From contig DAIDAM010000003.1 of NCBI GenBank assembly GCA_027310625.1, positions 67,278 through 131,277 on the forward strand: 64,000 nt of DNA, read 5' to 3'. The stretch is from a bacterium (GTDB lineage: Bacteria > Patescibacteriota > Minisyncoccia > UBA6257 > 2-01-FULL-56-20). This document shows positions 3,877-50,172 of this stretch, piece by piece. The notes under the pieces are model-generated. The model saw only the letters and a program-made list of their open reading frames with translations. It was not told the origin of the DNA and did no database searches. Made by a program: the position numbers and the translations under genes. The number at the start of each line of letters is the position of its first letter. Position 1 is the stretch's first letter.

Positions 3877-3917
3877 AAAAACAAAATGCTCTCAATTGAG
3901 AGCATTTTGTTTTCGTG
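3877..3917 (-). terminator. rho-independent terminator immediately 3' of tRNA-Tyr; 16-bp stem aaaacaaaatgctctc/gagagcattttgtttt followed by a T-run
   Basis: perfect hairpin plus U-tract on minus strand. Confidence 0.6.
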
Positions 3918-5864: not shown

Positions 5865-6186
5865 ACATCAGCAATAATCAGCTCCTATCAGCATTTATCA
5901 GCGTTCGTGTCATGAATGAACTTTTTGCGCTGATTTATGCCGATTTTTGCCGATTTATGCTGATGCGGCCGAATAACATTAAAGATTGTAAGCGATGGCG
6001 GTTTTTTTGGCAAATTTAGCATGTTCAAAACTTCACCACTTCACCACCAATTTCCTAAGCCTACCATCGCCACATAAAAAATCTATTCCAATATTCTTAA
6101 GAATACTAGAATAGATTTTCGCAACTGCTTTCCGAAAAATTGCCCGTCAGTAGATTTCTGTATCACCATAGGGTAAACTTAACCAC

Positions 6187-32830: not shown

Positions 32831-35053
32831 TCACTCCAAATGAAGTTTCCTTTCGAATTCCGCAAGCTTTTCCGCGAGTAAGGGACGGGCTTTGAGATTT
32901 TTGTCTTTCTCTAAAATTTTCACCGCCGCATCTCTCGCCGCTTTCACCATTTCGAAATCCTGCAAGCCGCGCATAGCGACGTCGGGCAAACCGGTTTGCT
33001 TTTGTCCGATGAACTCTCCCGGTCCGCGGATTTTCAAATCTTTTTCTGCGAGTTCGAACCCGTTTTTCGCTTCAACTATCGCTTTTAGACGGTCACTCGT
33101 GGTTTTTGCGGGTGAGTCCGTGAAAAGAAAACAAAACGACTGATGTTCGCCGCGCCCCACGCGTCCGCGGAACTGGTAAAGCTGGGCGAGTCCAAACCTG
33201 TCCGCGCCTTCGATGAGCATTATCGTCGCGTTCGGAACGTCAACGCCGACTTCTATCACCGAGGTGGAAACGAGAACGTCTATTTTGCCTTCCCGAAACG
33301 CTTTCATTACCGCTTCTTTTGAAGGTTTTCCGTCCGAGGCGAGACCTCGCCCGCGTTTAGCGCGTGCGGGCATTTGCCCGTGAAGCATGCCGACTTTCAA
33401 ATCGGGAAAAACGTTCTTGGAAAGTTTTTCGTATTCTTCCTTTACTGCCTTGGTTTCCCAAGGCAACGCGGATTTACGCTGATTGTTATCAGCGCGGATC
33501 TGCGCGGATGTATCCGCGTCTGTCCGCGTGTCCGAGGATTCTATCCTCGGACAAATGACGAACGCCTGCCTTCCTTTTTTTATCTGGCCGCGGATGAACT
33601 GATACGCTTTGTCGCGGTTCGCGGGCGCGACGATTTTTGTGATTATCGGTTTTCTTCCCAAGGGCAATTCGGTGATAGTGGAAATATCCAGGTCGCCGAA
33701 AACCGTGAGCATCAGCGTGCGCGGTATCGGCGTCGCGCTCATCGACAACAGGTGTGGAATCAATTTAGTTTCGCGGTTTTTGTGTAATTCAGCGCGCTGC
33801 CTAACTCCAAAGCGATGCTGCTCATCAATTATCACAAGAGCAAGTTTGTCGAAGCGGACATCTTTTTGGATTAAAGCATGAGTTCCGGCAATTACTTTTA
33901 TTTTTCCGGCGATAACTCCTTTTTTAAACTCGTTCTTCGAAACTAAACTCTCCAAATCATTCTCAAAAAATACTTTTGCTTCTTTGGAAACGAGGAGTCC
34001 CACTTCCGGCTGTTTCCGAAGCGGCAGACGGGCGAAAATTTTTTTGAGCGTCCCGAAATGCTGGCGCGCGAGAATTTCCGTCGGCGCCATGAAAGCGCTT
34101 TGAAAGCCGTTTTCGGCGGCGACGATGGCGGCAACGGCGGCGACAACGGTTTTTCCCGAACCGACGTCGCCCTGCAACAGGCGGTTCATCGGTTTCGGCT
34201 TCCCGATGTCCTGAATGATTTCCCAAAGCGATTTTTTCTGCGACAAAGTAAGTTTGAATGGCAGTGCCTCCGTTATTTCTTTCAGATGTTCAATTTCAAT
34301 TTGAATCGGCTGCGCTTTTTCCTCCGCGAGTTTCATTTTTTGTCTGATGTTGAAAAGCTGGAGAAGAAAAAGGTTCTCGAACGAAAATCTTTTCTTGGCG
34401 GCGAGCGCCGCTTCGAGAGTTTTCGGGAAATGAACGTCGCGGAGCGCCTCGTTTATTTCCGGAACGCCGGCGGAGTCGAGAATTTCTTCCGGAATCCACT
34501 CGGAAATTTCGCCGACGCTTTTCAGAATCGGTTGAATCAAAAACCTGATGCCCCTTGAAGTAAGTCCTCTCGTCTCGGGATAAACGGGCACGAGCCGCCC
34601 GGTATGCCTCATTTCTTGTCCCCGGTCTCTGGTCGCTGGTCGCAAACCGATGAGTTCGTACGCCGGATGCGAAAGATAAATTTCGCGTTCGCCGAGCGAA
34701 ACCTTGCCGGAGAAATTCGCTTCCCGTCCGGGTCGAAGCGTGTTCAAAAGATACGGCTGGTTGAACCACACCGCTTTTATTTCGCCGGTGTCGTCGGCAA
34801 TTATCGCGTCAACTATAACAAAACGCCGCCGGAAAGTGCGGCGGATTTTTATGTCGCGGACGACGCCATGCACCGTCGCCTGCATGCCGGGTTCGAGGTT
34901 CGCTATCGGAACGATTTCCGAAAAATCCTCGTAGCGTGACGGAAAATGAAAAAGCAAATCTCTTATCGTAAAAATCTCGAGTTTCTCCAGTCGTTTCAAA
35001 AATCTCGGCGGAATTCCTCTTATTCCCGAAAGCGGCGTCAAAAGGTCAATCAC
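32831..35053 (-). CDS. recG: ATP-dependent DNA helicase RecG, with repeat-derived in-frame insertions
   Basis: helicase motifs (GDVGSGKT, DEQHRFG, SATPIPRT), wedge domain; inserts RPATRDRGQEM and DTRTDADTSAQIRADNNQRKSAL. Confidence 0.92.
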   Translation of the reverse strand: MIDLLTPLSGIRGIPPRFLKRLEKLEIFTIRDLLFHFPSRYEDFSEIVPIANLEPGMQATVHGVVRDIKIRRTFRRRFVIVDAIIADDTGEIKAVWFNQPYLLNTLRPGREANFSGKVSLGEREIYLSHPAYELIGLRPATRDRGQEMRHTGRLVPVYPETRGLTSRGIRFLIQPILKSVGEISEWIPEEILDSAGVPEINEALRDVHFPKTLEAALAAKKRFSFENLFLLQLFNIRQKMKLAEEKAQPIQIEIEHLKEITEALPFKLTLSQKKSLWEIIQDIGKPKPMNRLLQGDVGSGKTVVAAVAAIVAAENGFQSAFMAPTEILARQHFGTLKKIFARLPLRKQPEVGLLVSKEAKVFFENDLESLVSKNEFKKGVIAGKIKVIAGTHALIQKDVRFDKLALVIIDEQHRFGVRQRAELHKNRETKLIPHLLSMSATPIPRTLMLTVFGDLDISTITELPLGRKPIITKIVAPANRDKAYQFIRGQIKKGRQAFVICPRIESSDTRTDADTSAQIRADNNQRKSALPWETKAVKEEYEKLSKNVFPDLKVGMLHGQMPARAKRGRGLASDGKPSKEAVMKAFREGKIDVLVSTSVIEVGVDVPNATIMLIEGADRFGLAQLYQFRGRVGRGEHQSFCFLFTDSPAKTTSDRLKAIVEAKNGFELAEKDLKIRGPGEFIGQKQTGLPDVAMRGLQDFEMVKAARDAAVKILEKDKNLKARPLLAEKLAEFERKLHLE

Positions 35054-35271: not shown

Positions 35272-35622
35272 ATGGAAATAAAAATAGTGAAAGAGCCAAT
35301 CAGCCGGAAGGAACTTGTTGAGATGGCGAGCGAGCAATTCGGGGACGTCGTGAAAGTGGTTGTTGACGTCGCGCAGGGGATTATGGCGGTCGGCGGCGAG
35401 CTTCACTCCGACGAAGAAGTTCTGCTGATGGAAAAAGAAAATTCCAAGAGAGAAAACACGTGGGGAATCAACATTTACCCCAAAAAACCCGTGAATGAAT
35501 GGATTGAATTTGATTCCATGATTAACATCAAGCCGTCGCTCGGCAATCGCTCGCGAATAGTGGAAAACGAAAGCGCGCGGGAAACGATAAAAAAAATAGT
35601 CGCTAAACTCGTCATTGACTGA
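35272..35622 (+). CDS. DUF5674-like hypothetical protein
   Basis: 116-aa ORF; family recognised only weakly. Confidence 0.5.
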   Translation: MEIKIVKEPISRKELVEMASEQFGDVVKVVVDVAQGIMAVGGELHSDEEVLLMEKENSKRENTWGINIYPKKPVNEWIEFDSMINIKPSLGNRSRIVENESARETIKKIVAKLVID

Positions 35623-35950
35623 AATGCCGATACACGAAGAACTGGCCGCGGGAAAATGGCGGGAGTTGTCGCTTGCCGAACAGCTCGGAAACGTCGGCAG
35701 CGAAGTTTTCCGCGCCTCGCGCTGGAAAGACAAGGACGAAAAATTGTTCCAAAGCGCGGTTGAAAAAGCGCTGGAACTTTTTGACTTGACGCTCGCCGAC
35801 CCGCGCTGGAAAGGGCGCTACCGGGAAATCGCCCGCGCGAGGGAGATCTTTTGCGACGCTTTTCTCGGCGATAATCTCTACGGGGGCTCGATAAGAGGTT
35901 TATTGAATTATTTCGACGTGTTCGCGGCGGCGGGAAGAAAGCAGGTTTGA
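35615..35950 (+). CDS. hypothetical protein; weak MazG-like NTP-pyrophosphohydrolase resemblance
   Basis: ORF overlapping the previous gene by 8 nt (operon-like). Confidence 0.4.
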   Translation: MTEMPIHEELAAGKWRELSLAEQLGNVGSEVFRASRWKDKDEKLFQSAVEKALELFDLTLADPRWKGRYREIARAREIFCDAFLGDNLYGGSIRGLLNYFDVFAAAGRKQV

Positions 35951-36111: not shown

Positions 36112-36321
36112 TTATAAATCATCCGGCATGAGCCCGGTGTGCTTTGCAATCCTGCTTAACATGCGGGGTCCGATTTCCTCGCGTTCGTGAAAAGCGAAAG
36201 TTACATTCGGCCAACCCGGTTTTGCCAATATTCTATGCGAACCGCGCTGCCGCTTTATCCGCCAGCCGATAGACGCCAAAGCTTTCAACACGCGCGATGC
36301 CTTAACGGCCCGCCACTCCAT
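36112..36321 (-). CDS. hicA: HicA family toxin (YcfA-like mRNA interferase); the ORF extends to 36378 but probably starts at MEWRAVKA
   Basis: KASRVLKALASIGWRIKRQRGSHRIL matches the HicA core. Confidence 0.7.
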   Translation of the reverse strand: MEWRAVKASRVLKALASIGWRIKRQRGSHRILAKPGWPNVTFAFHEREEIGPRMLSRIAKHTGLMPDDL

Positions 36322-36535
36322 GAGAAAATATTTTTGAAACTGGGAAAGGAAACTTTCCTTGCTCCGCGCTGTCGGCAAGGGTTCTCAAAGCCACGGCGTA
36401 AAGTTTACGAAGCGCTTCTTTTTTGGTCCTGCCGTAAGCCATGACGCCGGGCATCTTCGGAATTTCGGCGATCCAACGTCCGTCATTCTCGCGGTCAAAT
36501 TCAACTTTTAAGTTTTTGCTATTTGTCAAAGCCAT
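36302..36535 (-). CDS. hicB: HicB family antitoxin
   Basis: WIAEIPKMPGVMAYGRTKKEALRKL matches the HicB/UPF0150 fold pattern; directly upstream of hicA. Confidence 0.7.
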   Translation of the reverse strand: MALTNSKNLKVEFDRENDGRWIAEIPKMPGVMAYGRTKKEALRKLYAVALRTLADSAEQGKFPFPVSKIFSHGVAGR

Positions 36536-36813: not shown

Positions 36814-37434
36814 CTATATTCTTCCCGCTTCGTTGCTGAAAAACGATTTAACTTCTTTCCAATCCAAGGGTTTGAGCATCTTCGGCATCGGCTCCGCATC
36901 GGCATCATCGAAATATGTCAAACTCTTTTTTATATGCAGCAAGTTGAATTCAAGCGAAGAGTATTTTTTTCGGAACAGCGCGAGAACGTCGTCCAGCGAC
37001 GCCGTTTCCTTGATGATGAAATACAAGTCAATGAAGTCGCGCTTGGCTCCCCTTGCGGAAATGGCGTCTATTTTCATGCAGGCGATGTCGCGGATATCGG
37101 CAAGCCGAACGCCGCCGAAATGCGCCGATGAGAAAAGAAGCGGATAATGATAGCCGATAAAAGACACTTTTGTTTTTTCGAAAACGCCGATTACCGTTTG
37201 CTCGGCGCGTTTCTCCAGCCGGAAACTTCCCAACTCGGAAAGCCGCGAAATCAACAAGGAATCGTTGAAATCGCGTTCCGCAAAGAAATCCAGGTCGCCG
37301 GAAATTCTGTGCCCGAGATAAAGCGCAACCGCCGTTCCGCCGGCGAGATAAAATTCATTTATGCCGATTAAATTTCTAAGCAGAGAAATCGCCTTCTGCG
37401 AATTGCTCGGCAAAACCTCCGGGTGAAAAGTCAT
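36814..37434 (-). CDS. nucleotidyltransferase AbiEii/AbiGii toxin family (type IV TA)
   Basis: LAGGTAVALYLGHRISGDLDFF motif. Confidence 0.75.
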   Translation of the reverse strand: MTFHPEVLPSNSQKAISLLRNLIGINEFYLAGGTAVALYLGHRISGDLDFFAERDFNDSLLISRLSELGSFRLEKRAEQTVIGVFEKTKVSFIGYHYPLLFSSAHFGGVRLADIRDIACMKIDAISARGAKRDFIDLYFIIKETASLDDVLALFRKKYSSLEFNLLHIKKSLTYFDDADAEPMPKMLKPLDWKEVKSFFSNEAGRI

Positions 37435-37458: not shown

Positions 37459-37701
37459 TTATTGACGGCTCAAAACCAACTCCCAAAACTTGCGGCTTTT
37501 GGGAGAAATGTTCTTTCCGGCTTTCAGCGCCGAAATAATGTCGTCTTTGGAAAAATTTTTTATCAGCCATTTGCCGGCTTTCTCGTCGCCCAATTCCAAC
37601 AGCCGTTCCAAAACGTACCTTTTGTGCTTGCGAACGTTTATTTTTTTGAAATCGGCGTCCCAAAAATATTTTTCAACGGCTTCCCTTCCCGCTATGTCCA
37701 T
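37459..37701 (-). CDS. small protein upstream of AbiEii; putative cognate antitoxin/partner (DUF6922-like)
   Basis: 80-aa ORF 24 nt upstream of the toxin gene. Confidence 0.4.
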   Translation of the reverse strand: MDIAGREAVEKYFWDADFKKINVRKHKRYVLERLLELGDEKAGKWLIKNFSKDDIISALKAGKNISPKSRKFWELVLSRQ

Positions 37702-37838
37702 AACGATAAAATTATACCAACCTTTCGAAGGAAAAACAAGCGCGCGTGCCTCATCGGGAAGTCGGATTCCTTAGGCCGATTTCCTTCGTCAAATCGGCCG
37801 CTGGCCGTTAGTGGAATTATTTATGGCTTAAGGAAGGA

Positions 37839-37860
37839 CTAAGGAAGTCCGACTTCCTAA
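37839..37860. repeat. REP-like palindrome (ctaaggaagtccgacttcctaa)
   Basis: member of the TTAGGAAGTCGGACTTCCTAA family. Confidence 0.7.
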
Positions 37861-37876
37861 ATGTTATAATTACAGC

Positions 37877-38578
37877 ATGACGAGACCGCGAATAATTCGG
37901 AACGAAATTTACCATGTCCTTAACCGTGGCGTAGATAAGCGAGCAATTTTCTCAGACGATAACGACCGCCTGCGGTTTATTCATAACCTCTTTGAGTTTA
38001 ACGACACCGCACCTGCACCCAATCTCGCCTACCATCTCGGCAAAAAACAATCTAAGGAAGTCGGACTTCCTAAGATTGAGAGGAGACGGCGGGAACTTTT
38101 GGTGGAAATTCTCGCGTTTTGCATGATGAAAAATCACTATCATCTTTTGGTCAGGCCGAAGGCTGATAATTTTCTAACGTTATTTATGAGAAAACTGGGA
38201 ACAGGGTACACCAATTATTTTAATCAAAAATATAAGCGGAGCGGAGCGCTTTTCCAAGGGAAATACAAAGTGGTGCACATTAACAATGATAGACATTTTA
38301 TTCATCTCCCCTACTACATTCACTTTAATCCATTAGACGGCTTTGCTCCGAGTTGGAGAGAAAAGGAAATAAAGGACCACAAAAAAGCAATGGAATTTTT
38401 GGAGAACTATCGCTGGAGCAGTTTTCCGGACTATATCGGCAGGAAAAATTTTCCTTCAATCACGCAAAGAGAATTTTTACTAAAGTTTTTCGGCGGCCCG
38501 GAGGAATACAAACGCAAAACGACAGAATGGCTAAAAGCAATCGATTTCGAGGCAATACACGACGTTGCACTAGAATAA
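37877..38578 (+). CDS. REP-associated tyrosine transposase (RAYT, IS200-like Y1 transposase); contains an internal REP copy at 38052-38074
   Basis: HxH motif (NHYHLLV) and catalytic Tyr region (LPYYIHFNP); flanked by REP palindromes. Confidence 0.8.
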   Translation: MTRPRIIRNEIYHVLNRGVDKRAIFSDDNDRLRFIHNLFEFNDTAPAPNLAYHLGKKQSKEVGLPKIERRRRELLVEILAFCMMKNHYHLLVRPKADNFLTLFMRKLGTGYTNYFNQKYKRSGALFQGKYKVVHINNDRHFIHLPYYIHFNPLDGFAPSWREKEIKDHKKAMEFLENYRWSSFPDYIGRKNFPSITQREFLLKFFGGPEEYKRKTTEWLKAIDFEAIHDVALE

Positions 38579-38585
38579 TTAATAA

Positions 38586-38606
38586 TTAGGAAGTCGGACT
38601 TCCTAA
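38586..38606. repeat. REP palindrome TTAGGAAGTCGGACTTCCTAA (perfect)
   Basis: perfect 21-bp palindrome. Confidence 0.8.
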
Positions 38607-38623
38607 GAAAAAAACAAGCGGCG

Positions 38624-38878
38624 TTAGTCGTAAATGTCTTTGCGATGGCCAATGGCAAAAAATACCGCTTTATCGTCTCTAAAATAAAAAAGCGCCCGAT
38701 AGCGGCGTGTGATACGAAAAGAAAACACGCCGGGAAGTTCTTTGTTCCTTTTGGTGTGCAATCTTGGGTCGAGCCAATTTTTCTTGAAGATGTTTTCCTG
38801 CCGATTGAAAAGTTTCCTTATTTCCGAGGGTAATTTACCTAAATCACTGACAAAATCCGGTGTCTTATGGACAACCAT
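38624..38878 (-). CDS. RelE/ParE family toxin
   Basis: …FRITRRYRALFYFRDDKAVFFAIGHRKDIY fits the RelE/ParE C-terminal pattern. Confidence 0.7.
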   Translation of the reverse strand: MVVHKTPDFVSDLGKLPSEIRKLFNRQENIFKKNWLDPRLHTKRNKELPGVFSFRITRRYRALFYFRDDKAVFFAIGHRKDIYD

Positions 38879-38900
38879 TTTTGGTTTTTTAATGCCTGAC

Positions 38901-39089
38901 TCAGGAAGATTTTACGCTCTTGAGATAATTTTTCCTGATTTGAGAAGAGTTCTTATATTCTTTCAAACTTTCTTCAGGAATCAAAAGCAAAAACTTTCCG
39001 AGCTGGTCGCGGATAGCCCTGATTTCAACCAAAAGGTTCTTCAAGACAATGCCCTGCTCTCTATTTTCAGTTGTAGTTTTAGTGGTCAT
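38901..39089 (-). CDS. putative antitoxin for the downstream RelE/ParE toxin
   Basis: 62-aa ORF immediately upstream of the toxin. Confidence 0.4.
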   Translation of the reverse strand: MTTKTTTENREQGIVLKNLLVEIRAIRDQLGKFLLLIPEESLKEYKNSSQIRKNYLKSVKSS

Positions 39090-39184
39090 AGTGATATGGT
39101 AGCAAAACTACAAACGTACAGCAAGTTTTTCTGCTACCATTATATCACAATTGTTGCTTAATGGTAACGGGTAATTATTTGTGG

Positions 39185-39206
39185 CTTAGGAAGTCGGACT
39201 TCCTGA
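39185..39206. repeat. REP palindrome copy
   Basis: cttaggaagtcggacttcctga. Confidence 0.75.
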
Positions 39207-39209
39207 ATA

Positions 39210-39458
39210 TCATCTCGGATGTTTCATTATCGTTAAAATTCTGTAAGCGTCTTTCTCGATTGTAAAATAAAATCTATAGCTCCTGCTGATTCGCGCCTGC
39301 CAAACATTTTCTGCTTCATCGTATTTCTTGGCGCGTAGCGAGGGATGCATAAAATTCTTTGAAAGCAAGGAGAACTGCTTATCGGCTGCTTTCTGCAGAT
39401 TTTTGGGCAAGCCGTTGTAATCGCGAACAGCCCTTTCTGAAAAACTTAACCTCATCAT
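39210..39458 (-). CDS. RelE/ParE family toxin
   Basis: …WQARISRSYRFYFTIEKDAYRILTIMKHPR. Confidence 0.7.
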   Translation of the reverse strand: MMRLSFSERAVRDYNGLPKNLQKAADKQFSLLSKNFMHPSLRAKKYDEAENVWQARISRSYRFYFTIEKDAYRILTIMKHPR

Positions 39459-39472
39459 CGGCTGGAACTACT

Positions 39473-39694
39473 TTATTCAGCATCCAGTTTAGCCAATGAT
39501 TTCTTGAATTCCCTGACAGTTTTGAACGGGCCCGAAAAACGGCCGGCCGCGAAATCCGCCAGTCCTTCATTAATTGCTTTATTAATCAAATTTTGTCCCT
39601 TACTCGATATCTCTGCCTTTTTCGCCTTGAAAGCTCGGAGGGGGATTTTCACAATCAGATATTTCAAAGTTTTTTCTACCGTCACCTGCGGCAT
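39473..39694 (-). CDS. ParD/RHH-like antitoxin
   Basis: 73-aa ORF upstream of the toxin; C-terminal segment (…INEGLADFAAGRFSGP…) resembles ParD. Confidence 0.5.
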   Translation of the reverse strand: MPQVTVEKTLKYLIVKIPLRAFKAKKAEISSKGQNLINKAINEGLADFAAGRFSGPFKTVREFKKSLAKLDAE

Positions 39695-39745
39695 ATTTCA
39701 ATGTTAACAAGGACGCTGCTCTACGTCAACAATAATGCTTTATGG

Positions 39746-39767
39746 CTTAGGAAGTCGGACTTCCTTA
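39746..39767. repeat. REP palindrome copy
   Basis: cttaggaagtcggacttccttag. Confidence 0.75.
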
Positions 39768-39993: not shown

Positions 39994-41952
39994 TTATCTG
40001 TAGCACTGGTATATCACGTGCGTGGCTATATCTTGCGTGTTATATGACAACACGGCAGAAGAAAAACCAGACGGGCAGGAGCACCCCGACGTGAGCGGAT
40101 TGGCTCGCGTGCAACCGCCGCCCGTATTAGTTTCGTACAAGCCCCCGAAGCCGCCCTGTACGGACGTCGGCGGGTTGCTTGCGGAGTAAACTCGGTTGCC
40201 GGCGTCGTAAACTCCCGTTGATCCATTGATATTGCCTGTAACATCAAGTTTATATCCCGGCCCCGTCGTCCCGATGCCGACGTTGCCGTTATTATCTATC
40301 CAAAGTCGGCTAGTATACGTACCGGTTCCGCTCATTGCGTCAGTAGTGCCAATGGAAAAGCCGTATCCTGGCGATGCAGTTCTACCGTAAACAATTCTCA
40401 TGACTGCATCTGCACCGTACGCAAGATATCCCCAATTTCCTGTGTCTACTCCTGTGCCTCCGTAAACGATAATTCTCGCTTGCGTGTATGGGCTCGAGTC
40501 CGCGGGTGCGCTATTACGAATCAGCCCCAGCGAACCAGTAGTGGCGCTTTGAGCGCCTCCGACTGGACCAACATCTAATTTGTATTGCGGCCCCGTCGTC
40601 CCTATCCCGACGTTGCCGCCTTGGATAACTGTTTTTGTAGTGTTGGTTCCACCCATATACACAGGCACTGCTGGGCTAGTTGCTCCACTAGCAAAGTAAA
40701 ATCCGCCAGCATCAGCGCCCGCTAATATTTCGCTGTTAGCTCCTGTATATAGATAATTTCCGATTTTAACGTTTCCGTTCACTTCCAATTTCTGGCTCGG
40801 TCCCGTCGTCCCGATGCCGACGTTGCCGCCGTTTGTAATTGCAAACAACGTTGAGAATGTCCCATTTGACGTCGGGGCACGTCTAATATAGAAACTGTCA
40901 GGACCCGCACCTTCACCTAAGATGCCGCCCAAAGCCATGTGCCATGATGGCAGAGAAGTATTCGCAGTGTTCACATATAAACTTAGGTTGTTGTAATTAC
41001 TTACCGAGCCGGCATTTGTTGTTATCTCTGAATAAGAATTGTTATATCCTCGTAACCAAATAGTGTTATCGGCGCCGTTAATGCCAAAGTATGAGTTGCT
41101 ACCTCTTACATCTATAATCCCTGCAGGCCCTGTCGTCCCGATGCCGACGTTGCCGCCGTTTTTGAAGGTTATTGCGCCGCCATCGAATCGCAAATCGCCG
41201 CCGCTATTTTCAATCGAATATGCCTTTATGCCCGGCAAATCCAATGTAATGCGCGGACCACTACTATCAACTGCAAATATATTTGCATTGTACCAGGTAT
41301 CTTTTCCTCCCGCAGAAACATAACCGCTCGCTGAAACGTTCGCGGGAAAGCTGTAATTCCCTCCGCCGGTGTTCGCCCCGAAACTGCCCGCGGAGACGTT
41401 GGCGGCGCTGACACTGCCGGAGTAATTGGAGCCGGAGATTGTGCCGCCGGCGGTGATGCTTCCAGTAACGTAGACGTTGCCTCCCCCTTGCGCCGTGGTC
41501 GTTCCGACGGCAATGCCGTTCGCCTTGAGGTCAAGAGTGGTGAATATCGGTCCATTGACAAAGAGGGAGCCAACGGATGGAGCTACTCCCACGTTCGGAA
41601 TCGTGGTCGTTGAACCCGTCTGGTTGCTCGCGGTTATCGCGCCGCCGATGGAGACCGAACCGTCGCTTCTCACCGTGAATAAGGGGCCGGTGTTGAGGTT
41701 GAGAACTTTTATCGCGAAATAGCTCGAACCGGTGGAGGTGCCGACGATGAGAAGTTTCGTGTCCGATTGCGTCGTGGTCGTTCCTATGGAAAGGTTTTTT
41801 GAGGCGTCAAGACCTATCGCGCCCTGCCCGATGCCGGCGGACTGAGAGGGGCCGATGAAGTTTTGGGCACGCGCCGAAGGCGCGGCCAAGAAACTGGTGG
41901 AAACTGTGAAACTAATGGAAATTATTAGCAGAAATTTATGGAAATTTTTCAT
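39994..41952 (-). CDS. large secreted beta-helix/fibre-like protein with repeated GGNVGIGTTGP(x)KL(D/E)V motifs (tail-fibre-like)
   Basis: signal peptide; Gly/Thr/Asn-rich repeats; four copies of the NVGIGTTGP motif. Confidence 0.65.
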   Translation of the reverse strand: MKNFHKFLLIISISFTVSTSFLAAPSARAQNFIGPSQSAGIGQGAIGLDASKNLSIGTTTTQSDTKLLIVGTSTGSSYFAIKVLNLNTGPLFTVRSDGSVSIGGAITASNQTGSTTTIPNVGVAPSVGSLFVNGPIFTTLDLKANGIAVGTTTAQGGGNVYVTGSITAGGTISGSNYSGSVSAANVSAGSFGANTGGGNYSFPANVSASGYVSAGGKDTWYNANIFAVDSSGPRITLDLPGIKAYSIENSGGDLRFDGGAITFKNGGNVGIGTTGPAGIIDVRGSNSYFGINGADNTIWLRGYNNSYSEITTNAGSVSNYNNLSLYVNTANTSLPSWHMALGGILGEGAGPDSFYIRRAPTSNGTFSTLFAITNGGNVGIGTTGPSQKLEVNGNVKIGNYLYTGANSEILAGADAGGFYFASGATSPAVPVYMGGTNTTKTVIQGGNVGIGTTGPQYKLDVGPVGGAQSATTGSLGLIRNSAPADSSPYTQARIIVYGGTGVDTGNWGYLAYGADAVMRIVYGRTASPGYGFSIGTTDAMSGTGTYTSRLWIDNNGNVGIGTTGPGYKLDVTGNINGSTGVYDAGNRVYSASNPPTSVQGGFGGLYETNTGGGCTRANPLTSGCSCPSGFSSAVLSYNTQDIATHVIYQCYR

Positions 41953-46385: not shown

Positions 46386-48944
46386 ATGTATCGCTTTTTA
46401 GAAATTTTTCCCGGAGCGCTTTCGTGGCTGACTCTTATCTTACTTGTTTCTCTTTCCCGCTACGCGCCGGCGTTCGTCGCCGTTTTCATCATACTTTTTG
46501 ACATCTACTGGCTTTTGAAAACGATTTATCTCTCGCTGCATCTCCGCTCAACTTTTTCGGTTATGAAAAAAAACCTGAAGGTGAACTGGCTCAATGAGCT
46601 GAAGGCACTGCCGCATAATCCCAATGGCCCGAATAGAATCCAAATGCCCCGAATTATAGAAAAGGATCTCTCTTATAAACTAAGCGGGGTTTTCTTCAAA
46701 GTTCATAACCAACTCGGCAGGTTCTGCAGAGAGCGTCAATATGGCGATGCCGTCGCAAAGGAACTTGAATCCCTCGGCGTAAATTTTCAGCGCGAAGTTG
46801 CCGTTGCGGTCGCCGGGCGAAAATCCAATTTCGTAGATTTTGTCGTTGAAAGCAAAATCGCAATAGAACTGAAGACGAAAGACATAATTGACAAAGAAGA
46901 TTATTTCCAACTTCAAAGATACCTTAAAGCGCTGGGATTGGAATTGGGCATAATAGTCAACTTTAGAAGAAAACACTTGAATCCCAAACGCGTTCTCAAT
47001 TCTGACTTCCTTTACAAGTATTCGGCTGATTCAGATACATTCGGCAATTCGGATTATGTGGTCAATAGATATTCGGACAATTCGGATTCATTCGGATATT
47101 CGGATTATGTGAAATCCTGGGAAGACATTTATCATTTGGTGATATTGCCGATGTACCGCGAGCCGTACGAGGTCGTGAAAGGAAGTTTTGAAAGCATATC
47201 TAAAGGAAACTATCCGCTGGAAAAGTTAATTGTCGTCCTGGCGACGGAAGAACGCGCCGGCGCCGAAGCGAGGAAAACGGCTGAGAAAATCAGGCGCGAG
47301 TTCGGCGGCAAATTTTTCAAGTTTTTGATTACCACGCACCCCGCGAATCTCCCCGGCGAAATTCCCGGCAAGGGTTCCAACGAAACCTGGGCGGCGAAAG
47401 AGGCGAAAAGATTAATCATTGACCCACTGGTCAATGCGCAGACCTACGCAGACAACACGCAGACCGACGCAGAAAACGATTTTCTGTATCCAGACCTGAC
47501 ATATGAAATCAGAGGTGCGATATTTTCCATTAAGAAAAAGCTCGGCCTCGGACACAAAGAAGTTGTTTATCAAAAAGCACTGGAAGAGGAATTTAATCGA
47601 CTAGGTTTGAATTTCGAAAAAGAAAAAACGGTGGATATTGCATATAATAACAAAAAAGTTGGTGTCTACCGCCCAGATTTTGTAATTGAGGATAAAATTA
47701 TTTTGGAACTGAAGGCATTACCATTTATGGGCAAATATGAAAAAAGGCAAGTTTGGCAGTATTTAAAAGGAACGGAATATAAACTAGCTATGTTGGTAAA
47801 CTTCGGCGGTAGCGATATTCGCATAGATAGAATAGTTTACGACACAGCTCGCGCAAGTCAGCGTAAGTCTGCGTTAAGTCAGCGAGAGTCAGCGCTGAAA
47901 TATGAAAATGTTTTAGTGTCGGTTTTCGACATTGACACACAGATATTTCCGGAGTATTTCGGGCGCCTCACATATGTCTTTTTGAAATCCGAAGACAAAT
48001 TGCAGGCGATTTACCAGCCGATACCGCTTTTCATAAATAACATCTACGACGCGCCGGCGCTCGCGCGCGTGATTTCCTTTTCAAGCACCTTCTGGCAGAT
48101 GATGCAGCAGTCGCGGCCGGAACGGCTGACGTCTTTTTCGTCGCAGTCAATCCCCTTGCGGGCGCTCATTGACATCGGCTACTGGCACAAAAACGTCGTC
48201 TCCGAGGACTCGCGGATTTTCTGGCAGTGCTATCTCCGCTATCACGGGAACTTCCGCGTCGAACCGCTTTTTTACCCGGTTTCGATGGACGCCAACGCCG
48301 CGCCGACATTTTGGAGAACGCTCAAAAATAATTACTTGCAGCACCGCCGCTGGGCCTGGGGCTGCGAAAACATTCCCTACTTGCTCTGCGGCAAACATAA
48401 TCCGAATCCACGAATGCATCCGAATAACACGAATAGGAGTCCAGATAATAAATTAGATTCGGAACATTCGGATAGATTCGGGGATTCGGATTATGCGGAG
48501 GGTTTCCTCCACAACAAAAAAATCCCTCTCCGCAAAAAGCTCTACTGGTCGTTCAATGTAATTGAAGGATTCCATTCCTGGGCGACGAACGCGCTGATAA
48601 TTTTCGCTCTCGGCTGGCTGCCCGTTCTTTTGGGCGGAGAAGGTTTCGGGATTTCCATTTTGTCGCGGAGCCTGCCTTCGATTACAAGATTCATCATTCA
48701 ACTCTCGATGGTCGGAGTCGCCACCGCCGCTTTCTTCAGCATTCTTCTTCTGCCGCCGCGAAAAGAACCTCTCGAATGGCATCAGTATATTTGGTATCTC
48801 CTCCAATGGCTTCTTCTGCCCGCGACACTCATAATTTTCGGGTCCATCCCCGCGCTCGAGGCGCAAACGCGGCTGATGGTCGGCGGAAAATGGCGGCTCG
48901 GATTCTGGCCGACGCCGAAAACGAGAACCAATAATAGAAGCTAG
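46386..48944 (+). CDS. processive family-2 glycosyltransferase (cellulose-synthase-like; GKGxN, DxD, Q(H)RRW motifs) carrying two in-frame GxxExxY domain insertions (~46644-47000 and ~47481-47840) plus heptamer-repeat tracts
   Basis: GT2 motifs VILPMYREP, GKGSNETWAAKEA, VFDIDTQ, QHRRWAWG; inserted segments each align with the free-standing GxxExxY gene at 28546. Confidence 0.8.
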   Translation: MYRFLEIFPGALSWLTLILLVSLSRYAPAFVAVFIILFDIYWLLKTIYLSLHLRSTFSVMKKNLKVNWLNELKALPHNPNGPNRIQMPRIIEKDLSYKLSGVFFKVHNQLGRFCRERQYGDAVAKELESLGVNFQREVAVAVAGRKSNFVDFVVESKIAIELKTKDIIDKEDYFQLQRYLKALGLELGIIVNFRRKHLNPKRVLNSDFLYKYSADSDTFGNSDYVVNRYSDNSDSFGYSDYVKSWEDIYHLVILPMYREPYEVVKGSFESISKGNYPLEKLIVVLATEERAGAEARKTAEKIRREFGGKFFKFLITTHPANLPGEIPGKGSNETWAAKEAKRLIIDPLVNAQTYADNTQTDAENDFLYPDLTYEIRGAIFSIKKKLGLGHKEVVYQKALEEEFNRLGLNFEKEKTVDIAYNNKKVGVYRPDFVIEDKIILELKALPFMGKYEKRQVWQYLKGTEYKLAMLVNFGGSDIRIDRIVYDTARASQRKSALSQRESALKYENVLVSVFDIDTQIFPEYFGRLTYVFLKSEDKLQAIYQPIPLFINNIYDAPALARVISFSSTFWQMMQQSRPERLTSFSSQSIPLRALIDIGYWHKNVVSEDSRIFWQCYLRYHGNFRVEPLFYPVSMDANAAPTFWRTLKNNYLQHRRWAWGCENIPYLLCGKHNPNPRMHPNNTNRSPDNKLDSEHSDRFGDSDYAEGFLHNKKIPLRKKLYWSFNVIEGFHSWATNALIIFALGWLPVLLGGEGFGISILSRSLPSITRFIIQLSMVGVATAAFFSILLLPPRKEPLEWHQYIWYLLQWLLLPATLIIFGSIPALEAQTRLMVGGKWRLGFWPTPKTRTNNRS
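47000..47115. repeat. ATTCGGA/ATTCGGC heptamer-type repeat tract encoding …DSDTFGNSDYVVNRYSDNSDSFGYSDY… inside the GT2 gene; a similar tract at ~48405-48490
   Basis: period-7 direct repeats. Confidence 0.7.
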
Positions 48945-48959
48945 AATATAGAATTTAGA

Positions 48960-50172
48960 ATGAAAAAAATAAAAACGATTCTCGCGATTGAAACAAGTTG
49001 CGACGAAACGGGGATTGCTCTTGTTGAAGCGAAAGGTGGTTTTGCTTCGCCGAAATTCAGAGTCCTGAAAAACCTCGTGAGTTCACAGATAAAAATTCAC
49101 CGTCCTTTCGGCGGCGTCGTGCCGGGACTCGCCAAGCGCGAACACATCAAGAATCTTCCGAAACTTTTTCGGAAGATTCTTGTAAATTCTAAATCCGGAA
49201 TCCGGAATCCGAAACAAATTTCAAATTTCAAATTTCAAACATTGATTTAATTGCCGTCACCGTCGGTCCCGGGCTTGAACCGGCGCTGTGGACGGGAATA
49301 ACTTTTGCGCAAGAATTGCGCAAGCGACTAGCAACCAGAGACCAGAGACAAGAAAAGAAAATAAAAATTATCGGAGTGAACCATTTAGAAGGACATCTCT
49401 ACAGTTTTCTTTTGCGGCAGCAAAAGAAAACTGCAAATCAGAAATCAGAAATCAGAAACGTAAAAATTTGGGATTTCATGCTTCAAATTTGAGATTTCCA
49501 GCTATTGTTTTGCTGGTGAGCGGCGGACATACGGCTCTTCTCTTGATGAAAAATTTAAGAAAATGGAAAAAACTCGGGGAAACGCGGGATGACGCGGCGG
49601 GCGAAGCATTCGATAAAGTCGCAAGAATGCTCGGCCTCCCCTATCCCGGCGGTCCGGAAATCGAAAAACTGGCGAAAGAAGGTGACGCAGACGCGATAAA
49701 TTTTCCGCGCCCGATGCTCAACCAGAAAAATTACGATTTCAGTTTTTCGGGAATAAAAACGGCGGTATTTTACTATCTTAGAGACCGAATCTCTTACGAA
49801 AATACGAAAACATACGAAAGTACCAAAACGAAAAATAAATTTCGTAATTTCGCGCCGTTTCGTACTTTCGTAAGTAAGGCCGATATCGCCGCTTCGTTTC
49901 AAAAGGCGGTCGTTGAAACACTTGTCAAAAAAGTGGAACGGGCGGCGAAAGAATACGGGGCGTGCTCGCTCATTCTCTGCGGCGGAGTTGCGGCGAACAA
50001 GGTGTTGCGCGAAAATATGCGAAAAGCTGCTCACAAAATAAACGCGGAATTCATCGCGCCGCCGATGGAATACAACAACGATAACGCTGCGATGATTGCG
50101 GCCGCGGGATATTTCGCCTCGCTCCGGAGCAGAAAATTGCCGCTCAAGGCCGACGGCGATTTGAATATATAG
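48960..50172 (+). pseudogene. tsaD: tsaD (tRNA N6-threonylcarbamoyladenosine synthesis, Kae1/YgjD family) split into three reading frames by two -1 frameshifts, each inside a heptamer-repeat tract (49186-49240; 49425-49492)
   Basis: N-terminal ([11 protein letters not shown]…[16 protein letters not shown]) in frame 0; middle ([12 protein letters not shown]…VNHLEGHL) in frame 2; C-terminal (FPAIVLLVSGGHT…DDAAGEAFDKVARMLGLPYPGGP…) in frame 1. Confidence 0.75.

Follow-up and report, generated by a model that had tools for sequence, protein, structure and literature searches.

We analysed a stretch of 64,000 nucleotides from a bacterium of the Patescibacteriota (contig DAIDAM010000003.1, positions 67,278 to 131,277; called the window below). 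It contains a gene for a transposase that resembles the REP-associated tyrosine transposases (RAYTs), accompanied by five copies of a short palindrome of the kind known as repetitive extragenic palindrome (REP). One of these copies lies in frame within the transposase gene itself and another one in its putative promoter, and a hairpin at the same site within the gene recurs in most of the homologous loci that we sampled. We consider it rather probable that gene and hairpins together form a REPtron-like, partly IS200-like unit of a RAYT/TnpA-Y1 clade specific to Patescibacteria, in which the gene is embedded in three hairpins that evolve in concert.

Copies of the palindrome in the window

The window was searched with a 21-mer of the palindrome, allowing up to three mismatches, and the expected number of matches was taken from 100 shuffles of the window. 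Matches were found at 37840-37860, 38053-38073, 38586-38606, 39186-39206 and 39747-39767, with 0.00 expected. An earlier reading of the DNA without database searches (the sequence-only reading) had already listed these five copies, with four of the five starts one base too low. The invariant part of the repeat, common to all copies, is the 17-mer core AGGAAGTC[G/C]GACTTCCT, whose centre base is C in the copy at 37840 and G in the remaining four. Only the copy at 38586 is identical to the 21-mer; the other four deviate at the outermost two positions. All five intact REPs are confined to 2 kb of the window and no intact sixth copy was found in the 64 kb: besides remnants, which are described below, there are two weak matches (up to 3 mismatches of 15), which is the level of chance.

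Three of the five copies are built into the transposase gene, an open reading frame (ORF) at 37877-38578 on the plus strand. The upstream REP (37840-37860, the copy with the central C) occupies the -35/spacer position of the promoter and folds, as single-stranded DNA (ssDNA), with a predicted -6.4 kcal/mol. The internal REP is part of a longer hairpin, CAATCTAAGGAAGTCGGACTTCCTAAGATTG, in which 14 of 15 base pairs are formed (38048-38078, plus strand). It is read in frame as codons 58-68, QSKEVGLPKIE; the copy at 38053 itself encodes SKEVGLPK, and the centre of the hairpin is the first base of codon 63. In ssDNA folding this hairpin is the most stable of the five (-10.3 kcal/mol, with -5.2 to -6.9 for the others). 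The downstream REP (38586-38606) begins 8 nt past the stop codon. A search of the window with Rfam gave five tRNAs only, and no match at the REP/transposase locus.

The transposase

The ORF encodes an intact protein of 233 amino acids (aa), which by its Pfam match, its motifs and its predicted fold is a RAYT-like HUH/Y1 single-strand DNA transposase. It matches Pfam Y1_Tnp with 36.3 bits, above the gathering threshold (GA) of 23. With the NCBIfam model REP_Tyr_transpos (NF047646) it reaches 39.3 bits, where the cut-off is 80, and only residues 66-153 align; judged by these scores, the protein appears to belong to a related clade outside the curated equivalog. None of the IS200 models of NCBIfam matched it. 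The residues H87-x-H89 (HuH) and Y147, H149 and N151 (YYIHxNP) are present and invariant across 118 homologues.

Because a search of the PDB at the level of sequence gave only marginal matches to ISDra2 (E=0.13), a fold search was needed. We used an AlphaFold model built on the alignment of the 118 homologues, which has a predicted local distance difference test score (pLDDT) of 87 and a predicted template modelling score (pTM) of 0.84. The best Foldseek match of the model is 4er8_A, the E. coli RAYT with a REP hairpin (E=2.5e-6, TM-score 0.67), and the next ones are the TnpA proteins of IS608 and ISDra2 (probability 1.00). The modelled fold is that of an HUH/Y1 enzyme. The sequence-only reading, which had called the ORF a REP-associated tyrosine transposase, is borne out by the Y1_Tnp and 4ER8 matches and by the alignment of the HuH/Tyr motifs, in which H87, H89 and Y147 are in place.

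There is one stretch of low confidence in the model, the only one with pLDDT below 50, over residues 52-64 (block means are 46 for residues 51-60 and 52 for residues 61-70). The codons of the internal REP overlap this stretch, which belongs to the linker between helix 1 (28-40) and strand 2 (76-83). According to the model, the internal hairpin thus encodes what is predicted to be the sole disordered loop of the transposase.

Homologues are numerous, with more than 4,200 in a database of 90% clusters; in a library of 50% clusters, the representatives number 302 up to E<=1e-30 and 18,106 up to E<=1e-3. Those homologues that carry names come from metagenome-assembled genomes (MAGs) of Parcubacteria, Wolfebacteria, Brennerbacteria, Liptonbacteria and 'Patescibacteria'. 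No viral relative was found in IMG/VR, and a phage origin of the transposase was rejected on this ground. The nearest relative (73% identical) has the same layout with three REPs and is situated between a pilin-like gene and a PilB gene, without toxin-antitoxin (TA) neighbours.

Conservation and covariation of the internal hairpin

Homologous loci were collected from metagenomes (80 loci) and from other sources (13 gene-bearing loci, 11 by a scan of a genome collection and 2 by exact-protein look-up), which gave 83 unique loci. They were gathered by patterns from the close clade and cover 55-73% identity. A hairpin of at least 7 bp is found at the homologous site in 72 of the 83 unique loci (87%), and one of at least 9 bp in 64 of them; in control windows of the same genes, the respective frequencies are 16% and 2%. 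Elsewhere than in our window, the stem of the internal hairpin reaches 15-22 bp. In 71 of 71 loci the centre of the hairpin falls on codon position 1, in the identical column of the alignment. The copy inside the ORF, which had been taken as incidental in the sequence-only reading, is instead a conserved, covarying hallmark of this transposase family.

The hairpin sequence itself differs widely between the loci: we counted 47 distinct 17-nt cores among the internal hairpins of the 72 loci. The core that a gene carries inside is also found around it. Within 150 nt of the ORF ends, 71 of 72 loci have a copy of their own core (0-2 mismatches), whereas foreign cores were found there in 64 of 4,458 trials (1.4%). 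The flanking cores typically lie 20-30 nt before the ATG and 10-20 nt past the stop codon, and where both flanks are available, the own core is present at both sides in 50 of 64 loci.

Covariation was measured in a gap-free alignment of 65 distinct internal hairpin sequences, with 500 shuffles and slid partners as controls. The stem cells are paired in 86.4% of cases, compared with 66.3% after shuffling; the paired share is raised by the restriction to loci that have a hairpin, but the double changes are not. Changes on both sides, that is, compensatory ones, are seen in 13 of the 14 stem pairs. The covariation score is 0.466, while shuffled alignments give 0.124 (0 of 500 as high) and slid partners 0.04-0.10. 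The pair G13:C25 is the same in all sequences, and A14:T24 and T17:A21 in nearly all; the remaining stem positions vary freely. Pairs of GU type are not enriched among the cells that deviate from Watson-Crick pairing, and the loop orientation of flanking relative to internal copies is random (14/12/12/10). The constraint therefore seems to act at the level of DNA, on both strands alike, and mRNA structure as the selected level is disfavoured. In the protein alignment, the peptide is either conserved or changed in a mirror-like manner, for example SKEVGLPK and SYEVGLRK.

Some closely related loci show such a switch while it is under way. The proteins of loci L142 and L147 are 84% identical, and the hairpins differ by one compensatory change of a G:C to an A:T pair. 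Three of the four copies in L147 (internal, downstream and one distal) have switched to A:T, while the promoter copy is still of the old type. In L146, one REP copy is chimeric and has an arm of each type.

In the wider family the length of the linker is highly variable. Relatives of 42-54% identity have peptides of the EVGL or GSPTS type in the linker, which correspond to the REP core in two frames. Since the anchor motif FEFN is missing in most relatives below 55% identity, these distant relatives were judged from the alignment. A back-translation test of palindrome compatibility, meant for the distant relatives, has moderate power and recovered 47% of known cases at a false-positive rate of 7%. 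Finally, to look for recombination at the internal hairpin, we compared the identities of the N-terminal and C-terminal parts of the protein; their correlation is 0.44, and the outliers do not exceed the noise for a segment of 45 residues.

In-frame REPs in other genes

All six frames of the core GGAAGTCSGACTTCC are free of stop codons, and it reads as GSRTS/GSPTS, EVGLP/EVRLP or KSDFL. Adjacent inverted REP doublets of about 36 nt are found in frame in open housekeeping genes of other CPR genomes (loci L007, L016, L022, L030, L083, L089, L003 and L058; CPR, candidate phyla radiation). According to Pfam, the genes with such doublets encode MetRS, ArgRS, TsaD, a Mur ligase, a methylpurine glycosylase (MPG), RNase HII and a PMT_2 glycosyltransferase; the doublets add peptides such as GSPTSLGSRTS or RKSDFLGKSDFL. 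The RecG protein of L083, which has a doublet, aligns end to end with the RecG of our window across the insertion. Moreover, the RAYT of L166/L169 (L169:1285-2046) carries its own 31-nt REP in frame twice; the second copy adds QKQSYEVKPRKIEE between the residues that correspond to 165 and 166 in the protein of our window. These in-frame REPs in other genes support an origin of the internal copy as an in-frame insertion into a permissive linker.

Two of the housekeeping genes are also unusual in our window. The RecG gene (32831-35053, minus strand) has an extra segment, SSDTRTDADTSAQIRADNNQRKSALPWETKAV (33377-33556), exactly at the site of the L083 doublet. This segment is made of other hairpins, at 33529-33553 (11 bp, with one half formed by the conserved CPRI codons) and 33446-33465 (8 bp), and CGCGGAT..ATCCGCG. 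The tsaD gene (48960-50172) is spread over three frames, with the N-terminal part at 48960-49250, the C-terminal part at 49288-50172 and the middle part (...VNHLEGH) in a further frame. The frame shifts lie in short tandem repeats (AATCCGG x3, AAATTTC x3 and AAATCAGA x3), and the gene contains perfect palindromes of 16 bp (49148-49182, at the site of the TsaD doublet of L022) and 14 bp (49402-49433). It could be a pseudogene, an assembly error or the result of slippage-prone insertions.

Spread and mobility of the REP

Around the homologous genes, REPs are densest next to the ORF, with 6.8 per kb up to a distance of 150 bp. The value drops to 0.16 per kb between 150 and 1000 bp, to 0.03 between 1 and 3 kb and to 0.01 between 3 and 7 kb. 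By this distribution, the REP would be a low-copy repeat that is seeded mainly beside the enzyme gene.

The whole unit has been duplicated in one other genome. Loci L149 and L150, which are 130 kb apart on one contig of 585 kb (Ga0315285_10000001), have a block of 901 bp in common that is 99.9% identical. It extends from the upstream REP to just past the second downstream REP, and the flanks are unrelated. It follows that duplication of the whole REP-gene-REP unit in one piece is possible. At the right end of both blocks, or close to it, there is a different palindrome, TATCGAGGTTCGACCTCGATA. The unrelated gene context of the nearest relative of the window's transposase also fits mobility of the unit.

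The scan of the genome collection listed 129 matches, and the counts per genome are lower bounds. By our own estimate a few dozen of the 129 are due to chance (those in unrelated taxa of high GC content that lack an extended stem); the number expected in 596 Gb is about 70. Among the matches listed, the exact 17-mer of the window is found in many species-level CPR genomes, mostly without a RAYT within 8 kb. The outer stem around the 17-mer varies in these genomes, yet it stays complementary, and the REPs often form adjacent inverted doublets. In single CPR MAGs, this core was seen on 4-8 contigs or more. The sequence-only reading had named a restriction of the palindromes to this locus as something that would speak against it. 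Within the window they are indeed restricted to the 2 kb; on the other hand, other CPR genomes have this core in dispersed form.

The promoter copy and the transcript

An extended -10 box, TGTTATAAT, is present at 37862-37870 (plus strand), with its last base 7 nt from the ATG, and the upstream REP ends one base before it. The order TTGACT-REP-TATAAT-ATG is seen in several homologous loci, and 38 of 62 loci have a -10-like hexamer whose first base is 10-15 nt ahead of the ATG, with a peak at 12. From this spacing we infer that the mRNA of the transposase is leaderless or nearly so. Given the position of the -10 box, the transcript would start after the upstream REP, contain the internal REP and end near the third one.

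A model of the unit

We propose that the enzyme, like its homologues TnpA-REP and IS608 TnpA, would act as an HUH single-tyrosine nuclease-ligase, which binds a hairpin on ssDNA and cuts and rejoins there. Its fold and the strict association of gene and repeat make it probable that it catalyses such reactions on the hairpins described here. Three of them would be built into the unit: one in the promoter (-35/spacer), one in the linker codons 58-68 and one just past the stop codon. The internal copy would have begun as an in-frame REP insertion into the only permissive linker of the very gene on which REP activity is centred. The same process of hairpin copying, replacement or conversion that seeds REPs locally may then keep the internal copy in step, with the stem drifting by compensatory changes across the family and the copies at one locus staying alike. 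Judging from the sequences, the chances that the RAYT itself homogenises the copies seem to us evenly balanced; template-switch correction in palindromes, together with short-tract conversion, could be the homogeniser as well. The internal copy may also dampen expression, and we suggest autoregulation by way of the promoter and internal copies only tentatively. Local seeding would have given the two further REPs of the window, which have a 13-nt extension in common; each is placed where one minus-strand ParE/RelE operon has its 3' end, upstream of the next operon.

Several points weigh against this model. The activity of the clade on hairpins is argued from homology and not from biochemistry. 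The E. coli enzyme TnpA-REP requires a 5' GTAG and a mismatch in the stem and fails on a perfect palindrome (PMC3333891), and classical REPs are imperfect, oriented palindromes with a conserved 5' tetranucleotide GTAG/CGTC (PMC3333891, PMC3733652). No conserved GTAG/CGTC tag is visible in the 129 aligned contexts, the stems are near-perfect and the orientation to the gene is random. Because these REPs are near-perfect, untagged palindromes, the recognition by our enzyme must differ from that by TnpA-REP. Furthermore, the identity of the RAYTs tracks the similarity of their cores only weakly (0.69 for the same core, 0.62 for distant cores); therefore, the concerted evolution cannot simply be ascribed to a changing specificity of the enzyme. 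As 11 of the 83 loci (about 13%) have no clear internal hairpin, among them L105, which nevertheless has flanking REPs, the internal copy is not essential. Beyond the close clade, the depth of the internal-REP feature is indicated by the peptide traces alone. Finally, the block duplication was seen in one other genome only, and the REP of the source organism was counted within the 64-kb window, where it is confined to 2 kb.

The internal hairpin could also be a selected self-recognition site. The transposase would then bind the hairpin in its own promoter and coding sequence, on single-stranded or extruded DNA, with negative feedback as the result, and this requirement would force the copies in the gene and the REP population to remain identical. 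The persistence of the hairpin at one codon position in 87% of the loci, over 47 variants of the core, is what one would expect in this case, and the stability of the internal copy, which exceeds that of all others in the window (-10.3 against -5.2 to -6.9 kcal/mol) and has the long stems of 15-22 bp elsewhere, fits as well. The upstream copy lies between -35 and -10, and as RNA the internal hairpins have folding energies of -15 to -35 kcal/mol, which would also hinder translation. On the other hand, the in-frame REPs in housekeeping genes and the second one in a RAYT indicate that an insertion into coding sequence needs no regulatory purpose, and the hairpin is gone from about 13% of the loci. 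Copies that are 200-550 bp apart could be kept identical by gene conversion, without selection, and E. coli TnpA-REP does not bind double-stranded substrates (PMC3333891). We regard self-recognition as possible, but doubtful.

Comparison with known systems

By its modelled structure, the unit is closest to the RAYT/REPtron of E. coli (PDB 4ER8; PMC3333891, PMC3479197), although it fails with respect to the tagged imperfect palindrome and the equivalog score. The two share the Y1 HUH fold, in which HuH is combined with one Tyr in a Y-x-x-x-N-P helix, and in both the gene is bordered by cognate hairpins (37840 and 38586 here, and likewise in 71 of the 72 homologous loci). The adjacent inverted doublets of related CPR genomes are similar to the BIME/REPIN arrangement. 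Unlike in E. coli, a cognate hairpin is also found in frame inside the ORF and another one inside the promoter; the copy number is low and falls steeply with the distance from the gene. The protein, with its 233 aa, has an extra C-terminal helical part, and scores 39 bits where the REP_Tyr_transpos cut-off is 80. The E. coli REPtron does not move as a unit (PMC3333891), whereas here a block has been duplicated in one genome. A classical RAYT gene is single-copy and vertically inherited and does not transpose as a unit, and its repeats are dispersed over the genome in large numbers; for our unit, both the immobility and the high number of dispersed repeats are doubtful.

The REPIN-RAYT systems of Pseudomonas (PMC3116915, PMC5581495) are similar in that the RAYT is flanked by its own repeat and in that inverted doublets are the dispersed form. 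However, the Pseudomonas REPINs are extragenic and number hundreds, whereas here a 17-nt core is common to many species-level genomes of different CPR lineages, and no intragenic copy in a RAYT is reported in the RAYT literature that we searched. Neither a REP inside a RAYT gene nor REPs in CPR were found described in the literature covered, which included few subscription journals and so does not prove their absence.

The IS200/IS605 elements, such as IS608 and ISDra2, likewise combine a Y1 HUH transposase with subterminal hairpins at both ends of a unit, which is about 0.9 kb long here, and the two copies with 99.9% identity on one contig (L149/L150) are in line with such an element. IS200 uses hairpins to limit its own expression. 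In contrast to IS200/IS605, the same symmetric palindrome is found at both ends of our unit, instead of distinct left and right ends that have guide tetranucleotides. The hairpin is moreover found singly, dispersed, as doublets and within genes, and the window contains a single unit. A classical IS200/IS605 element was rejected, since the ends are identical and symmetric and no IS200 model of NCBIfam matched.

In Rickettsia, palindromic elements inserted in frame in protein genes were reportedly described by Ogata and colleagues in 2000, and the QMITEs of Coxiella are said to be comparable. The likeness to these elements and to other in-frame miniature inverted-repeat transposable elements is that the palindromes are inserted in frame, also in essential genes, and add a surface peptide while the protein is kept. 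Unlike the Rickettsia elements, the REPs are much shorter (15-31 nt for single copies, about 36 nt for doublets) and are tied to an identifiable HUH enzyme, in whose gene one of them lies.

Toxin-antitoxin neighbours

Downstream of the transposase gene there are two putative TA operons, both on the minus strand and thus convergent to it. Toxin 1 (84 aa, 38624-38878) belongs to the ParE/RelE superfamily according to Pfam ParE_toxin (24.5 bits, GA 23) and a weak match to RelE3 (PDB 3bpq). The putative antitoxin 1 (62 aa, 38901-39089) is named for its position only, 22 nt upstream of toxin 1, and a promoter scan found a promoter-like site, TTACCA-17-TATAAT with TG, at 39139-39167. In the second operon, the ParE/RelE-like toxin 2 (82 aa, 39210-39458) matches ParE_like with 20.4 and ParE_toxin with 19.6 bits, both below GA; its identity with toxin 1 is 34% (E=4e-11). 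Putative antitoxin 2 (73 aa, 39473-39694), again named for its position, lies 14 nt upstream of it and is preceded by another promoter-like site from the same scan, TTGACG-17-TAACAT with TG (39701-39729). In Pfam, NCBIfam and PADLOC, the two putative antitoxins match no family. At the level of the genes, the two antitoxin-toxin pairs that the sequence-only reading saw between the REPs stand, with toxins of ParE/RelE type (toxin 2 below GA) and putative antitoxins.

Upstream of the transposase gene, also on the minus strand, are a HicA toxin (36112-36378; Pfam HicA_toxin, 53.4 bits), for which the true start is probably an internal Met, and a HicB-like UPF0150 protein of 77 aa (36302-36535; 25.6 bits, just below the GA of 27.3). 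The HicB-like gene is located upstream of hicA, which it overlaps, and not downstream. They are followed by an AbiEii-family nucleotidyltransferase of 206 aa (36814-37434; 54 bits with Pfam, and found by the AbiEii models of PADLOC) and its partner of 80 aa (37459-37701; Pfam PF21956, 51 bits), both on the minus strand. This partner is DUF6922 and there is no AbiEi, which makes the former an AbiEii-like toxin with a non-canonical partner. Pfam agrees here with what had been read from the sequence, namely hicB-hicA and AbiEii with a small partner. The ORFs are at the positions given in that reading, and taken over the whole locus, Pfam supports Y1_Tnp, ParE_toxin, HicA_toxin and AbiEii.

The two remaining REPs are associated with the ParE/RelE-type operons. 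One of them (39173-39206 including a 13-nt extension on the left, AATTATTTRTGGC) lies 4 nt past the stop codon of toxin 2 and upstream of operon 1; the other one (39734-39767, also with the extension) is the outer limit of the REP cluster. The 33-nt unit of the REP at 39186 is 91% identical to the copy at 39733. The same extension is found in one of two remnants that the sequence-only reading had missed and the repeat-family search revealed, a truncated half-copy at 37815-37838 (AATTATTTATGGC, also evident from the sequence); the other remnant (37757-37773) is a decayed REP, GGAAGTCGGA-TTCCTTA, with one base deleted. With two extra REPs inside 1.2 kb, the window is richer in REPs than is usual for the homologous loci.

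In the sequence-only reading, the region was a mobile island with TA cassettes, each bracketed by REPs. On this view, the RAYT would mobilise the cassettes, and the island would be comparable to an integron array or to an IS200/IS605 element with cargo. Each ParE-type operon is indeed situated between two REPs of the same type, which are 600 and 561 bp apart. Both outer REPs carry the 33-nt unit, a remnant of which also precedes the AbiEii operon, and the four TA operons have a single orientation. In addition, the loci L185, L188 and L190 have a ParE pair (35 bits) at the corresponding site; it is convergent to the RAYT and enclosed by REPs of the genome's own type. However, the segments between REPs elsewhere contain mostly unrelated genes (NYN, LamG, cupredoxin and surface-protein genes), with a ParE pair once, in the L185 group, and no cassette was found at a second site among the loci examined. 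The only duplicated block that we saw, in L149/L150, is REP-RAYT-REP without cargo. With 34% identity, the two toxins are old paralogues and not recent copies, the nearest relative of the transposase (73%) has no TA neighbours, and TA genes are common in such islands anyway. We therefore did not retain the cassettes as cargo and consider their mobilisation improbable.

Small TA-rich units in the same orientation, with hairpin sites between them that are recognised as ssDNA, are also a feature of integron attC arrays, whose hairpins are recognised in single-stranded form. Unlike in an integron, there is no tyrosine-recombinase integrase, attI or Pc, and each operon has its own promoter-like site; the ORFs listed between 34.5 and 41.5 kb include no integrase, and a Pfam scan of 11 ORFs gave no match to one.

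Following our model of local seeding, the bracketing of the TA operons by REPs would be a by-product of the local spread of REPs into a TA-rich island. In E. coli strains without tnpA-REP, hicAB is found in place of the gene (PMC3333891), so that TA genes and REPtrons share loci elsewhere too.

It is very improbable that the palindromes are ordinary regulatory sites unrelated to the transposase, either operators of antitoxin-type dimeric repressors or bidirectional terminators: perfect dyad symmetry would fit the binding of a dimer, REPs lie between operons, and the REP at 38586 scores as a terminator-like hairpin with a T-rich tail for the convergent minus-strand ParE operon 1, but the same architecture is found around RAYT homologues without TA neighbours, one copy is inside an ORF and one in a promoter, and the stem bases vary while their complementarity is kept, which argues for a folded hairpin and not for a base-specific dimer site.

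Other repeats and genes in the window

The window contains a second, more abundant family of short repeats, with units like ATCMGCRTAAATC, for which there are 16 matches (up to 3 mismatches) compared with 2.9 expected. Members are located at 5928, 10622, 10919, 11695, 14706, 18739, 21103, 33467, 47859, 60528 and 62647. The units often occur as tandem pairs 20 nt apart, and in several places they form a left and an inverted right arm with 20-25 nt in between (about 90 nt in total). Two copies lie in ORFs, recG and an ORF of 852 aa at 46386-48944, and give peptides of the QRKSAL type.

In total, we counted 39 perfect hairpins with a stem of at least 8 bp in the window, compared with 6.7 in shuffles. 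Among them are small families, namely GTGCTATAGCAC (10457, 30182, 30930), CCTGCCTGCCGGCAGGCAGG (11421, 54225) and TACGAAT..ATTCGTA (23850, 54198). Long perfect palindromes are found at 3878 (18 bp), 24544 (16 bp) and 50214 (19 bp).

Beyond the REP cluster, at 39994-41952 on the minus strand, a protein of 652 aa is encoded that has no Pfam match and contains repeated GNVGIGTTGP motifs, which are mirrored by direct repeats of 61 nt in the DNA (40241, 40571 and 40781). In L142, a similar large repeat protein is found between REPs. At the left edge of the TA-rich stretch (35272-35950, plus strand) there is an operon of two genes, a DUF5674 gene (101 bits) and an overlapping ORF of 111 aa that matches no family. 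The genes for tRNA-Arg (31814) and tRNA-Lys (32751) are located just beyond recG.

Conclusions

REP/RAYT systems are usually viewed as an enzyme gene with extragenic repeats on its flanks. Here, the repeat is also part of the coding sequence and of the promoter, and this holds for the internal copy in 87% of the 83 loci sampled from a family for which more than 4,000 homologues were detected. The bacterial radiation to which they belong is a major one, yet it is poorly understood. The unit blurs the boundary between a domesticated RAYT and an active IS200-like element.

The 47 hairpin variants on one scaffold, with the invariant positions G-A..T/A..T-C, are a rare natural covariation series. 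They bear on the question of how hairpins are read by HUH enzymes, which are used as tags for the coupling of ssDNA and protein.

Selfish hairpins colonise essential genes in frame in streamlined genomes, as in the parallel case of Rickettsia, but here the responsible enzyme is in view. It is conceivable, although we think it unlikely, that gene and repeat are a self-referential pair, in which the in-frame and promoter sites of the gene provide feedback and lock the concerted evolution, and the system writes stop-free hairpins into essential genes. If true, this would be an undescribed source of lineage-specific protein insertions in CPR, and a natural library of at least 47 hairpin variants. 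For the annotation of CPR genomes, such hairpins explain odd peptide insertions and probably also some of the contig breaks in the assemblies.

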